Below, piece by piece: positions 6,001-12,000 of a DNA stretch of 64,000 bases (within the stretch, counting starts at the first letter, position 1; each line of letters opens with the position of its first letter). The position numbers are program-made. Origin of the DNA: Escherichia coli (GTDB lineage: Bacteria > Pseudomonadota > Gammaproteobacteria > Enterobacterales > Enterobacteriaceae); assembly GCF_041886205.1 (NCBI RefSeq), contig NZ_CP169029.1, one strand, 5' to 3'.

Positions 6001-9000
6001 GAGGAGCGACTGGCAGAGTTGCTGCCTCTTGAGGGATTTACCTTCTCCGGGTGAGTGATACCTGCCGTCAGGTGTTCGTGCACCGGGCCATAACCTGCCG
6101 TCGGGAGTTAAACGCCTGACGACAGGAAATCAGCAAGGCCAGCAACCACACGGGCTGACAGCGAATCAGAACCTGAATCAGCCCGGAGTCATTCCAAGGG
6201 CAGTACTTCATCACCTGCCACCAATACCCGGGTCAGTACTTCGCGACCTGACGCGATCACCTAACTCAGTACTTCAGAGCCAGCCTCCGGTACCTGCCCG
6301 GCGATCGCCCCTGTACAACAAAATAAATCATCGTCAGACGGCGATCATTCGTATGCTTCACCGATGGACGCCCGAAAAAGCGTCAATATGGGTTCGCCGG
6401 AACGATACACTGAAGCTTACATTTCAGGTAAAGCAGAAATATATTTCCTGAAATACATATCTCTCCATAAAGTAAGAACACTCATAATTCCAAGTTTATT
6501 GTAAAGTTTCTTCTTCTGACAGGAGAGCGTCTTCAGACTACGGTTTCGATAACGAGCTATCTCCGATAATGATTTCCCTGTCAACAACTGACATAAAAGT
6601 AATAATTCCATTTCAGTCAAGCTCCAGGGTATATTAATGCAGACTGTTTGTTTATATTCCTGAATGTATATGGACACACATCTTGTCTTACTGTATACCA
6701 TTCAGCGCTCCTGAAAATCAGCATATTGTAAAAAGGGAATTTTTAAATTTCCAACAACAAATATCACCACAGATTATAACAGAAATATATTTAACATATA
6801 TGGCATTACTACATGGCATTGCTACAACTGATTATCAGTACATCTTTGCTAAAACCATTTAACTCCGTTAAAACCTGACAAGTTCAGCATGACTGAAAAA
6901 CTTTATCAAAGCCAGGAAATCATAACATACAGTAGTGGTGAAATAGTCAATAGTACAGTCTGTTTCACTATTATAAGGACCTCTGTCTGTATTCATTAAA
7001 ATATTTCCGACTGACATACCTGCAGAAAATAACTGCAGCAACAGTTGCTGCCACACTGGCATTTACATTATTCCACATAAACAATGCGATTATTTGCGTA
7101 TTCCGCTCTATTCGATCACAGATTGATCCAAATCATGATCAATTCGAATGCCAAACCGTGATCTATTCAGATGCCATTTTGCAATTATTTATCTCCTGTA
7201 TAGTATTCCCACGCTGACAATGCATTTTCACATCTTTTTAACCACATAAATATTATGTCCTCCAGAGGTAATTTCAGTGACGGTAATATAGCAACGCCAG
7301 TAATAACTATCCTTTTTTATATTCATTTATAATCTGATAGCGATTAATCAACTGATTCAGCACCATTTCTGTCTGTTTCTGCTGCTGTTCTCTGTCATTT
7401 TGCTGCAGGGCTTCACCATAACGACGTAACTGCTCTTCTGCCGGTATGTGCCGGTTAAAAGCCTGCATGATGCCAAACACCTCCGTTTTCAGTTCACTGA
7501 CCGTCATGTATTTTCCCCGCTGTTCATCCAGCCGGTTCAGGCGCTCAGCCAGTTGCTGTAAACGAGCCATGCCTTCACTCCAGCCCGTCATCGCCTCTTC
7601 CGGGAGCGCACGCCCCCTTACGCTCTTCTGCCAGTTATCCTCCATTTCCTGAACACGGGGGTTATCGGGGAAAAACCCCCTCACCTGCTGCAGCAGTTGT
7701 GCACTGCGTTGCAGGTTGTATGCCGGCGGTAATTCTGTCAGTCGCGTTATCTGCTGACCGGAAAGTGTTATCCACTCCGGTGCATGATTTAACAATAAGG
7801 GTGTTCTGCTGAGCTGTGCCAGATGGTCTGCTGAAAGCACATCCGGTGGCGGTGTCAGCAGCCCCCTGAGTTGCTGCTCTGCCGGTGATGGCTGTGTCAG
7901 AGACTGCCAGCCCATGACTACACTGACAACCAGCAGGGCAGCGCAGGCACCAGCCACAAACGGTTTCAGAAACGCGGGCGAAGATTTTTGAAAGGAGGGG
8001 GTGGTCTCTGCTTTTGTTTCAGAAACAACATGCACCAGACGGGAGTGCGGCAGGGTCTGATATTCCTGTACGTGCGGAGCATCAGAGCAGAGAGCCTGAG
8101 CCGGAAGCGTTACCGGGGATACCTCTTCACCCTGTAACGGCTGGTTCTCCAGACGGGTGATATATCCCTTCACCATGGCTTCCGGCAAAGTCACCTGGCT
8201 GCTCTGTTTAAGTCCGTGCCGCGCCAGCGTGTCACCCAGCATCTTCAGGTATGTCTCTGTCTGATACAGTAACGGCAGACTGTCACGACTGTCCGGCGGC
8301 ATTGTCCGGAGCGTTTTCTGCAGGCGACTGACCAGACCGGTGATGATTTCCAGTCTGGCATGGGGATTCAGGGGCCACATCACTGACCAGTGATGCCGGG
8401 TCAGCGCCACAATCAGGGCCAGCCCCTCATTCAGGCCACTTAACCCTGTTGTATGCATCCGGGCAACGGTGTACCAGGATGCCGTCTGTAATTCCACACC
8501 GTTATGCTCATACAGCCGCAGGCAGAGCCTCTCCACATAACACCAGTCCACATCCGGGCGTGCCGGGTGGGTCAGTTTGCTGATTTCATCGCGCAGGGCG
8601 GCATAATCAGGCACTGACCGGGGGTCACCACCTGTTTTCAGTTTCACGTCAGAAGTCATCGGCAGTTTCTGTGCTCCCGTATTCACCGTTATTATTCCTG
8701 TGAGAAGCCGGAACAGACCATCCGGTGTCAGACAAAATCCTCAAGATGACGACTGATGCTGTTTTCATGGTAACAGGTCACCAGTAATTCACGGGTTGCC
8801 CGGGTGAACGCCACATACAGCACCGGAATCACTTCGGACTCATCCGCAACCCCCGAGTGAACGAAAGAGGCATTGATAACCGCCACATACGGAAACTCCA
8901 GTCCCTTACTGCTCTGGTACGTCAGTAAATGCACCACATCCCTGCGTCGCGAGTATGCCTTCTTGCCTTCCCTGTCAAAGCAGGTGGCAAAAGGTATCCC

Positions 9001-12000
9001 GCGCTGTGTCATAACCTCTGTCAGGTGTTTCACTGAAAACTCTGCCGGACACAGCACAGCCATATCACTCCAGTGACCGCACAGGGCATGGCGCTTCTCC
9101 AGCCAGTCTGCAACCTGTCTGGCTTCATCACGTTCAGAAGCACAACGCAGGATTTCCCGCTCTGTGCCCTCTTCACCACCCGCCTGTGGCTGAACGAGCG
9201 GTATTTCACGGTTCTGATGTTTTTCAAAATACTCGCGGGAGAATGCATAAGCAAAGTGCAGAATGCGTTCCGGATTACGATAATTGACCGGCAGGACAGA
9301 AGTGCGTCCCTGCGCCTGAATCCCCACACTGGCCAGAGAAAAGTTCAGAGCCCGCTCCCGCCGGTAAATGGACTGGGCGTCATCGTACATCAGGAGCAAT
9401 GAACGGGATACGTTATCAAACAGACGGGCAATCAGAGCCAGCCAGCGACTGTCAAAATCATGCCCCTCATCCACCAGTACAGCATCATATCCGGTACCGG
9501 TGATTTTCCCGCTGTTCACGGCCTCTTCCAGTGCGCTGAAGCATTTCTCCGGGTAATCCTTTCTGTCAGCCGTCACCTGAATACCGTAACGTTTTATCAT
9601 CGAGGCACACCAGCTGTGAAAATGAGATACCGTAACCCGCGATTTCAGCCCTCTGTCCTCAATGCATTCCCGCAGATAACTGGCCAGCGTAATGTTGTAG
9701 CACAACACCAGTATCTTTCCCGGTGTGGTTTCAGCCAGGTAAAGACAACGGAACAAAAGAATCATGGTTTTTCCGGAACCGGCCACACCATGAATGACTC
9801 GATGCCCGTCACCAATATTTCTGGCCAGAATCTCCTGCTGAATATCCATGATTTTGATTTGTGAGTTCTGTTTCACGGTCACTTCAGGAAACAGATGGGC
9901 GCGCAGAATATCTCTCATCCGGGGTGTCACCCGGGTTCTGAATCCCGTGGTAAACATCCCGGCTATTTTCTGCCGGAATACCTCAGGTAAAACGGACTGC
10001 GTCATTTCATCCTGACAGATTGTCTGTGCTGAAGGAAAAATCTTTTCCACCGCATTCTCATCATTCCCTGCCAGTGCCTTCAGTTGCTGACGGGTAATGC
10101 GGGTAAACACCACACCATACGCCCAGGCCAGGTTCAACCGTCCCTTATACTGACCGTCATTCTGCCGTAAGCACGGGTCTGCAGGTAAGGCATTAACCGT
10201 ATCACAGGCATAACGACGAACCTGCACCAGCGGATTTATTTCTGATTTCAGAATCCCGTCGGTTTCCAGCGTGACCTGCTCCTGGTTCGCCTTACGCAGC
10301 GTGGAAACCGTCCAGTCCTTAACCTCCAGAAATACCAGCCCGTTCTCCGGGTCAATAATGACAAAATCCGGATGCCGGTTTTTTCGTCCCACCGGAATAT
10401 CGTACCAGACAAGGCAGTCATCGTTCAGAAAGCGCTCCAGTCGTAAAGCCACCCTCCTCTCTCCGGGCGTCATTCTCTCCTCAGTGGACGCCGATACATT
10501 TATCAGTTTCGCCATAACACTCTCCTGCCACCCGATAAAAATATAACTGCCGGTATATTCCGTGCAGACAAAATATGTCGGATACTTTTTTTAAAACAGA
10601 CATAAATCCGGTTTCACAACAGGTGAAATCATCCGGACCAGCCCCCCTGGCCGGAAATTCACTGACTGAACGCGCCATAAATATCCGTGGCTTACACAGT
10701 AAAGCCACACCTGAATATTGTTAAATAACAGGCTCATAATCAAAATCACAAAAATATCTTTTCCATCCTGACTACCCTCACCAGGGCAGCCAGGATAAAA
10801 AATCAGACATGATAATAAGATGAATTGTCCACAAACTGCTGTTGCTTCAGATGGCGCAGCAACACCCTGCCCTCCGGCATAAATGTTGTTCCGTAACGAA
10901 CCAGTCCTGCGTCTTTAAGTTCTGCATCAATGACATAATGCAACTCACCTGGCTGAGTCTGTTCCGGCATCGTCACGTCGACGCGCTTAATACGTGGCTC
11001 ATACTTCAGCAGAACATCTGAAAGCACGCGCATCAGTTGATGCACCGTCCCCGGCATGCCCTGCAAAATGGTTGTCATATCCGGCAGCCCATAATCCGTT
11101 GTATCTGCTGAACATGACCGTAATTATTCCTGGTGTGGTGCCGCACTTCTTCGTAGGTGCAGCTGCAGGGGTATTCGGTAATGCAACGGGTGGACGTCGT
11201 GGTGCGATTTTGGGTGCCTTCGCTCAGGGCTTGCTTATTACCTTCCTGCCAGTATTCTTATTGCCGGTGCTGGGTGATATTGGTTTTGCTAACACCACCT
11301 TCAGTGATGCTGACTTTGGCGCACTGGGTATTTTGTTAGGGATTATCGTTCGCTAATACTTTGATGACATTAATATCCTCCAGGATTTCAGGAACGTGGA
11401 GGATATTAATTCCTCTTATTTTTTTCATTTTTCTTTCTTCCAGTCAGGACTGCATTTGATCAATCGCAAGCGCCCCGAGAAGTACGTAGCGTAAGGATTA
11501 TTTTACAGCTGAGAAGTTCCAGGGCAGCAGTTCATGCACACGGTTCGACGGCCAGTCATTGATCTTCACAATCACCTCGCGTAAAAAGCGGGGTAAGACT
11601 GCTCATCCAGCTCATCTCCACAGGTAATAATTCAACGCCAATGGCAGAAGAGGTCGTTACCGGAAGACGCCGCGAAACACGCCCTTCGTTCTGCCAGAGC
11701 CTGAGCCATTTGAAAATAACATTATCATTGACGCCATTTTCACGTGCAATCTGTGCAACACAAGCTCCAGGTTGTGATGCCAGTTCCACCATACGAAGTT
11801 TGAATTCATTCGAATAGTTTTTACGAGGTTCTTTTCGCCAGTCCTGTAATTCCATACTTAGATGTCCGTCTATATCAGATGGGCGTCTAAGTTACCAATT
11901 CTCGTCTGATGGCTACATACGGCGGTCAGTTTACGCTTACGGGTTATCTGTCTGGAGATTCAACTCTGTTTCCTCACAGGAGCTCTGTCATGGCTGATAA

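Follow-up and report, generated by a model that had tools for sequence, protein, structure and literature searches.

This work concerns two neighbouring genes in a 64,000-nucleotide stretch of the Escherichia coli contig NZ_CP169029.1 (assembly GCF_041886205.1). We call this stretch the window, and coordinates refer to the whole of it. The upstream gene encodes a 595-amino-acid (aa) protein that joins a NERD nuclease domain to a UvrD-like superfamily 1 (SF1) helicase, and the downstream gene, 41 bp away on the same strand, encodes a 459-aa protein with an ImpA_N domain. A preliminary description had both open reading frames (ORFs), which are on the minus strand, right in coordinates, length and spacing, and proposed that they form a functional pair, perhaps a new defence system, carried as cargo in a decayed type VI secretion system (T6SS) cluster. 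Our analysis leads to a different reading. We think it probable that the two genes are functionally unrelated neighbours, brought together through the history of one genomic site, and that the nuclease-helicase is a single-protein anti-phage or anti-plasmid enzyme. The downstream gene, by its architecture and position, is tagA, and the pairing is a positional accident at a hot spot at the end of the T6SS cluster.

The identity of the ImpA_N protein is central to this reading. The tagA gene is defined by an ImpA_N domain, a transmembrane stretch and, at the C-terminus, a VasL domain (PMC6745524). Pfam agrees with the ImpA_N domain that had been described, and the single central transmembrane helix also stood: the Kyte-Doolittle maximum is 2.16 over 19 residues (aa 239-257) and no other stretch exceeds 1.6. 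The VasL domain had been missed (Table 1). Because this architecture matches the published definition, and because the orthologous alleles of intact clusters are found at the same place, following tssE, we assign the protein to TagA, a known T6SS accessory protein. These alleles lie at the end of T6SS-1 (Sci-1) in E. coli E300010 and NY1601, in the contigs L089 (of the enteroaggregative E. coli (EAEC) 042 type) and L098, and in Dryocola clanedunensis. On this assignment, it is a resident of the E. coli T6SS-1 cluster and not cargo. The TssA models of NCBIfam match it weakly and solely through the ImpA_N region, and no PADLOC model matches it. TagA of E. coli binds TssA and stabilises the fully extended T6SS sheath at its distal end (PMC6745524). 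It is a membrane-anchored, TssA-like sheath stopper that catches the sheath at this end.

The TagA allele of the window is divergent, with 77-85% identity to most E. coli TagA proteins. Its identity to the 042-type protein (EC042_4550 by gene order) is 83%, and that gene is likewise the last of T6SS-1 after tssE. The TagA proteins of Vibrio cholerae and of EAEC Sci-1 are class B TssA-like proteins; the window differs from these cases in lacking the T6SS core. Activity of IS66 and ISL3 elements, together with deletion, appears to have destroyed the T6SS machine here and left a tssE stub and tagA. As the core is gone and these two alone remain, the tagA product has no local machine to act on, and the gene is a relic with an intact ORF. 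Its ratio of nonsynonymous to synonymous substitution (dN/dS) against other alleles is 0.21. The probable start is the ATG at 8659, which gives a protein of 450 aa, a form that is present in the protein collection.

The annotation of tagA in public genomes deserves a comment of its own. RefSeq/PGAP splits the gene into two or three 'incomplete' pieces (ImpA_N, hypothetical or POTRA, and VasL). We considered from these pieces that tagA might be a pseudogene in most E. coli, and dropped the idea: translation gives intact ORFs of 450-462 aa in JML285, M1, E300010 and NY1601. Single intact ORFs in this size range lie at 7307-8686 in the window and at 13308-14687, 14965-16341, 11214-12602 and about 7025-8395 in the contigs L001, L002, L004 and L087, respectively. 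The splitting looks like a systematic annotation artefact.

For the 595-aa protein, Pfam bears out the composition previously described, a NERD domain and a complete UvrD-type helicase core. Our alignment comprised 57 homologues, whose identity to the window protein is 26-58%. The nuclease signature, D49, E63 and K65 in 'PDF...LEVKDW', is the predicted active site; D49 is invariant, E63 is found in at least 90% of the homologues and LEVKDW is the majority consensus. Helicase motifs I, II, III, IV, V and VI are all present, i.e. Walker A GVAGSGKT (242-249), DEGHD (348-352), Q380, R412, G537 and T570-R571, and G242-T249, D348-E349 and the four later positions are invariant, or nearly so, among the homologues. 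Judged by these motifs, the NERD site and the SF1A motor both appear to be intact. The gene is under purifying selection, with a dN/dS of 0.09-0.16 against six E. coli alleles.

Could the protein be a housekeeping helicase? The preliminary description had raised this question, and no such match was found, as every NCBIfam equivalog score is far below its cut-off. The highest housekeeping score reaches 65 bits, where the curated cut-offs are 419-1168 (PcrA, 65 bits against 911), and on these scores the protein is not an orthologue of UvrD, Rep, PcrA, HelD or helicase IV. Its sequence matches in the PDB are at E 1e-12 or weaker. The AlphaFold2 model has a mean local confidence (pLDDT) of 91 and a global fold score (pTM) of 0.88, and the solved structures that it resembles best are UvrD, PcrA and Rep (Foldseek against UvrD 2is4, E 6e-18), then SLFN11 and Upf1. 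These are generic SF1 relatives only, and the comparison yields no mechanistic template for the arrangement of nuclease and motor.

RefSeq calls this gene from the second ATG, as a 581-aa '3'-5' exonuclease'. The longer form is backed by the conservation of an N-terminal 'MA..I' in distant homologues, including that of Dryocola, and by the AGGAG Shine-Dalgarno sequence of the upstream ATG, whose 'MAKLI' N-terminus is conserved (window 10473-10515; contig L004 9001-9043). The 581-aa calls are probably 14 aa short and the 595-aa form correct.

Several lines of evidence separate the helicase from tagA. The helicase is found without tagA on pCUPSTF6_1_02, between a DUF6710 gene and sodC, on an IncK2/Z plasmid, and in NCTC9113, between ibrA and ibrB; about 10 enterobacterial plasmids carry it. 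The core that is common to all these other contexts (chromosomal, plasmid and ibrAB copies) corresponds to 8721-10517 in the window, and homology among them does not extend beyond the gene. Conversely, 'empty' alleles with the order tssE-hyp101-tagA, where hyp101 is a 101-aa gene, occur in otherwise intact T6SS clusters (NY1601 and L098), and the tagA ORF of NY1601 is intact. The window is colinear with the empty allele through the 3' end of tssE and the first ~40 nt of hyp101; homology to NY1601 ends at 10701 and picks up again at 8683, just before tagA. Most of hyp101 has given way here to the helicase alone, which carries 183 bp of unique upstream sequence, and the start of hyp101 can still be recognized in a 48-aa ORF (37-nt match, E 3e-6).

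The closest described counterpart, EC042_4548 of EAEC 042, belongs to the same family, has the same length and 94% protein identity, and lies in the same tssE-tagA interval. It is however the third gene of a 4,015-bp block (a YdcA-like gene, a T5orf172/PD-Lambda-1-like gene and the helicase) inserted between tssE and hyp101, and is followed by the 101-aa gene, whereas the window helicase is solitary and abuts tagA. The helicase is at two different insertion points in the same tssE-tagA site. The two neighbours also differ in synonymous divergence: against E300010 that of the helicase is 0.15, versus 0.37 for the adjacent tagA, a 2.4-fold gap. We therefore favour the view that the helicase is an autonomous single-gene module, inserted as cargo and unrelated in function to tagA. 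Of the earlier suggestion that the pair as a whole is inserted cargo, the half that concerns the helicase holds, as a defence-like cargo gene (PADLOC C3a187, E 7e-140), and the half that concerns the ImpA_N protein does not, TagA being a resident T6SS gene.

Matches to the helicase were found in 1047 of 5426 complete E. coli genomes (about a fifth; full length in 614) and matches to tagA in 1045 (full length in 436). One or the other is present in 1495 genomes, so both are present in about 597, and in 462 they are adjacent (at least 80% of the combined query). The preliminary description had asked whether the pair is split in most genomes. Within E. coli it is not, as about 462 of the 614 genomes with a full-length helicase have tagA next to it. 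That said, this adjacency is one inherited locus and provides no independent co-occurrence. Most E. coli have the 101-aa gene between the two, and the 41-bp spacing is specific to the lineage of the window. The distribution of the helicase in E. coli is patchy and the gene is often disrupted by insertion sequences (ISs). In enterohaemorrhagic lineages (O157:H7, O111 and O145; matches H55-H69 and H129-H139), IS66 cuts the helicase after 791 nt, and the remnant, annotated as a 'NERD domain-containing protein', is a stub that accounts for about a quarter of the sampled genome matches.

Outside Escherichia the family is large. At E <= 1e-30 its members fall into 557 clusters at 50% identity, with a typical length of ~600 aa. 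The closest member is that of Dryocola clanedunensis (59% identity), which likewise has tssE and tagA on either side but is preceded by a different small gene; the Dryocola TagA has 44% identity to that of the window. We examined 80 more distant loci from Beta- and Gammaproteobacteria, Bacillota, cyanobacteria and others, with 30-43% identity to the window protein. Within 10 kb of these homologues there is no homologue of ImpA_N, TagA or TssA/E/F/G/J, and four further contigs likewise carry helicase homologues outside T6SS contexts. Because every more distant member that we examined is outside such contexts, the T6SS association is limited to one enterobacterial clade. We also clustered every ORF lying up to 4 kb from the helicase at the 80 loci, and no family was shared by more than 6 of them or kept a fixed position.

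The claim that the two genes form a functional pair is not upheld by these results. The dedicated two-gene defence system that it implies would consist of an ImpA_N membrane sensor or anchor and a cytoplasmic nuclease-helicase effector. The same strand, the 41-bp gap with no predicted terminator, the adjacency in about 462 E. coli genomes and in Dryocola, at 59% and 44% identity, and the co-transcription of the counterparts in EAEC (see below) all speak for it. Yet each gene is found without the other, none of the 80 distant loci is paired, most E. coli have a gene in between, and neither the two insertion points nor the 2.4-fold gap in synonymous divergence is what such a system would lead us to expect. 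In addition, TagA lacks a PADLOC match, and its role in the T6SS is established and does not require a helicase (PMC6745524). We regard a two-gene system as very improbable.

What does the helicase do? It matches the PADLOC model C3a187 (NERD+UvrD) over its full length (E 6.9e-140), with aa 1-594 aligned to positions 1-556 of the 559 in the profile. This model goes back to cluster 187 of Shah et al. 2018, a three-member NERD+UvrD family proposed on computational grounds as a type III CRISPR accessory; its members lie beside type III-A/B cassettes and were suggested to supply processive DNA degradation (PMC6546367). NERD domains have also been reported to be enriched in defence islands (PMC9226505).

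The neighbours of the helicase point in the same direction. In the 042-type locus the gene in front of it (EC042_4547-like, T5orf172/GIY-YIG; L089 6006-7807) matches PD-Lambda-1 (E 5e-88), a validated phage-defence family, and the two genes after tagA (L089 11795-13188) match KwaA and KwaB. The position after tagA is occupied by Zorya II in E300010 (L002 10557-14024) and by an 'ATP-dependent nuclease' in strain M1. The tssE-tagA interval and the region after tagA behave as a defence hot spot in E. coli. Our literature search found no description of a T6SS-linked defence hot spot, and a search of the E. coli defence-island paper PMC10121019 for T6SS or NERD gave no result. At distant loci, 4 of 14 sampled have strong restriction-modification or defence-candidate neighbours and 1 has a weaker one, in a sample that has no background control, and a neighbour with a TIR domain was seen at one further locus. 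The homologues of three Bacillota loci are just downstream of a large gene resembling type IV methyl-directed restriction enzymes (PADLOC mREase_IV, E down to 3e-303; Table 1), which may be a recurrent pairing in that phylum.

The closest working analogue is Nhi (SERP2475), a staphylococcal protein that gives phage immunity on its own and combines a PD-(D/E)xK nuclease with an SF1 helicase (bioRxiv 10.1101/776245). Both are one polypeptide with an N-terminal PD-(D/E)xK-type nuclease and an SF1 helicase, and both are often found on plasmids or near defence genes (bioRxiv 10.1101/776245). The motors differ, being of the DUF2075/Dda-Upf1-like SF1B kind in Nhi and of the UvrD/Rep-type SF1A kind in the window protein, for which the DUF2075 family PF09848 scores below significance (E 0.0063). 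No Nhi model is among the PADLOC matches to the nuclease part or among the top 25 matches to the whole protein. A UvrD-like SF1A core is shared with Gabija GajB, ArmD and other UvrD-like defence helicases, and the GajB models of PADLOC give many partial matches (best E 9e-20). GajB has no fused nuclease and works with a separate OLD-family nuclease, GajA; no GajA-like (ATPase-TOPRIM) gene adjoins the helicase in the window or in the related loci that we checked. AddA/RecB and Cas3 also combine an ATP-driven SF1/SF2 motor and a nuclease in one chain, and AddA is among the fold matches. The window protein differs from them in having its nuclease at the N-terminus, i.e. in reversed order, in being much smaller, and in lacking a partner subunit and a 1B/2B-rich accessory architecture beyond the core.

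These comparisons suggest how the protein could work. The SF1A motor would load on the DNA of an invading phage or plasmid, be it single-stranded DNA, DNA ends or replication intermediates, translocate 3'-5' with ATP and feed the strand to the N-terminal NERD nuclease, which would degrade it. The protein would then be a one-polypeptide equivalent of Nhi, Cas3 or the AddA/RecB-type helicase-nucleases.

Data on transcription come from EAEC. TssF and TssG of EAEC 042 are EC042_4542 and EC042_4543 (PMC4604203), and these numbers, together with the gene order of contig L089, fix the others: tssE is EC042_4545, the YdcA-like gene EC042_4546, the T5orf172/GIY-YIG gene EC042_4547, the helicase EC042_4548, the 101-aa gene EC042_4549 and tagA EC042_4550. 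A reporter placed directly after EC042_4548, which has been called an 'accessory gene' of the EAEC 042 sci1 cluster, falls in ops1, ops2 and rfaH mutants, and the ops2 mutation lowers sheath assembly without abolishing it (bioRxiv 10.1101/2025.02.08.637259). The reporter data imply read-through from the T6SS genes into the helicase and tagA, and the effect of ops2 on the sheath is most simply explained by lowered tagA expression. The window has lost the T6SS promoter region, and no terminator was predicted between the two genes. They are probably co-transcribed, as their counterparts in EAEC are, and this reflects position and not partnership.

The ops2 element itself presents a difficulty. 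The sole copy of the ops-like motif GGTAGNNT near the published ops2 in the 042-type locus lies 62 nt inside the 595-aa helicase ORF (L089 8063). We could not reconcile it with the published placement of ops2 'between EC042_4547 and EC042_4548', and we use the reporter result alone. If GGTAGNNT is ops2, the published ops2 mutant also alters helicase codons. The GGTAG core at the 5' end of the 042-type helicase reads GGTGG in the window (~10450).

A number of observations weigh against our reading of the helicase as a defence gene unconnected with the T6SS. The defence argument draws on neighbourhood and domain analogy, with sampling that has no background control: 9 of the 14 sampled distant loci gave no defence match in the one or two neighbouring genes that were tested, and the three Bacillota loci with strong neighbours are related and share the same type IV restriction-like gene, so they are not independent. 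In the literature that we searched we found no experimental report of defence for the NERD-UvrD family, and a search for phage-borne homologues at E <= 1e-20 found none. A ~40%-identical homologue is present on the megaplasmid of 112 records of the Ralstonia solanacearum complex, e.g. NC_003296.1 148360-150138, a conservation that is unusually stable for a presumed defence gene. The lack of phage copies and the stable Ralstonia copy would also fit a maintenance function. A scan for sigma-70-like promoters directly upstream of the window helicase gave no convincing site. Finally, the helicase is beside tagA in the T6SS clusters of two genera, Escherichia and Dryocola (59% identity). Taken with its transcription with tagA in EAEC, this placement leaves a T6SS-linked role a small chance.

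Such a role would make the helicase a true accessory factor of the Sci-1/T6SS-1 'accessory operon', for example one that handles the DNA of lysed prey or is co-regulated with firing. It would account for the place between tssE and tagA in two genera, for the 'accessory gene' label, for the dependence on RfaH and ops that the gene shares with those downstream in EAEC, and for the lowered sheath assembly of the ops2 mutant. The last point is explained by reduced tagA expression, however, and otherwise intact T6SS clusters exist without the helicase; the family is overwhelmingly found outside T6SS contexts, with copies on plasmids, and its neighbour in the same 042-type block is PD-Lambda-1-like and so matches a validated phage-defence family. 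We consider this explanation quite unlikely. A function in DNA repair, recombination or replicon maintenance on mobile elements, e.g. at stalled forks or plasmid intermediates, is somewhat unlikely in our judgement. The core motifs and fold resemble those of UvrD, PcrA and Rep, umuDC, parAB and integrase genes are found in the vicinity of plasmid copies, 112 records share the conserved copy of the Ralstonia megaplasmid, and many distant loci have no defence neighbour. A maintenance enzyme sits poorly, though, with housekeeping equivalog scores far below cut-off (PcrA, 65 bits against 911), with a patchy and often IS-disrupted presence in 1047 of 5426 E. coli genomes, and with flanking genes from validated defence families and the reported enrichment of NERD domains in defence islands. 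An accessory of type III CRISPR, which would give the Cas10 complex processive DNA degradation, is suggested by the origin of C3a187 in cluster 187, beside type III-A/B cassettes (PMC6546367), and by the full-length match (E 7e-140). But cluster 187 had only 3 members (PMC6546367), as against the 557 clusters of the family found here, neither the window nor the E. coli, plasmid and Dryocola loci have cas genes, annotated or detected, near the helicase, and there is no recurrent neighbour in the 80 loci. This last explanation is extremely improbable.

The surroundings of the two genes agree with the preliminary description, which had noted a truncated tssE, a fragment of a phosphotransferase system (PTS) permease and a small LuxR-type regulator in a decayed T6SS setting (Table 1). 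The tssE remnant has 91-94% nucleotide identity to tssE of intact clusters and is the last trace of the T6SS-1 core in the window. IS66 and ISL3 elements flank the locus on both sides. The LuxR-C-type gene, which does not belong to the unit, has weak NCBIfam matches to the C-terminal helix-turn-helix (HTH) of RcsB, FimZ and EvgA (E 1e-5 to 5e-4). Over positions 1-11814 the window shares 99.7% identity with the E. coli contigs L092 and L093, and over positions 1-10120 it shares 99.96% with strain JML285, whose helicase is interrupted by IS100.

Two further features of the window were noticed. The contigs L092 and L093, 99.7% identical otherwise, lack a segment of ~16 kb (11815-27991). This segment contains IS66 remnants, orphan CdiA-CT/CdiI-type modules, a cdiA gene encoding 3259 aa (16361-26140) and beside it a 588-aa ORF (26153-27919) that is probably cdiB and has no NCBIfam match at E <= 1e-10. 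It represents a locus for contact-dependent inhibition that was inserted next to what is left of the T6SS. Further along, a 670-aa ORF (59978-61990) next to dinG matches, in its C-terminal part, HECT-type E3 ubiquitin ligase effectors of type III secretion (NF011904, E 1e-22); the region around it is otherwise core (ybiO, rlmF, fiu, dinG).

Table 1. Features of the nuclease-helicase and tagA locus. Positions are those of the window, except in the last row, where they are those of the contigs named.
Feature	Position	Strand	Length, residues or basis
NERD + UvrD-like SF1 nuclease-helicase ORF	8728..10515	minus	595 aa, ATG start; ORF call, Pfam, PADLOC C3a187
Predicted NERD (PD-(D/E)xK-type) nuclease domain	10192..10467	minus	aa 17-108; PF08378 E 5e-10
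Predicted SF1A helicase core	8770..9840	minus	aa 226-582; Pfam UvrD-helicase, AAA_19, UvrD_C, UvrD_C_2
Helicase cassette as inserted in the window lineage	8684..10700	minus	segment absent from the 'empty' T6SS allele
tagA ORF (ImpA_N + transmembrane segment + VasL)	7307..8686	minus	459 aa from GTG; Pfam, transmembrane segment, synteny
ImpA_N domain of TagA	8330..8638	minus	aa 17-119; PF06812 E 1.2e-16
Single hydrophobic/transmembrane segment of TagA	7901..7975	minus	aa ~238-262
VasL domain of TagA	7334..7759	minus	aa 310-451; PF12486 E 4.4e-37
48-aa ORF, truncated hyp101 remnant	10591..10737	minus	first ~10 codons are the start of the 101-aa EC042_4549-like gene
tssE 3' remnant, 5' part lost	10803..11098	minus	TIGR03357 E 3e-7 (fragment 10803-11078), profile positions 60-113 of 133
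PTS EIIC-GAT fragment	about 11114-11356		Pfam record on the 99.7%-identical contig L092
Small LuxR-C-type HTH gene	6417..6701	minus	94 aa; downstream of tagA; context
Bacillota mREase_IV-like neighbours of homologues	L069 7005-9890; L072 6430-8871; L073 6052-8487

What do these results mean? A false lead has been removed: since the membrane protein is TagA, an ImpA_N protein next to a nuclease-helicase is no new defence architecture. TagA is already known, and the helicase is a member of a catalogued family of candidate nuclease-helicases. This NERD-UvrD family is large and so far a computational candidate only, which makes it a good target for cloning and plaque assays.

For the EAEC Sci-1 cluster, the 'accessory' genes look like hitch-hiking defence genes, and this affects how mutants and polar effects in that cluster, such as those of ops2, are to be read. 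There is also a more far-reaching idea, which we think unlikely: that the 'accessory operon' EC042_4546-4549 is a small defence islet, consisting of a PD-Lambda-1-like nuclease and the NERD-UvrD protein and transcribed with tagA under RfaH and ops, and that the placement of the helicase in Escherichia and Dryocola has been selected. If this is true, T6SS firing would be co-regulated with immunity against phages and foreign DNA, for example so as to destroy the DNA or the phages that are released from lysed neighbours.

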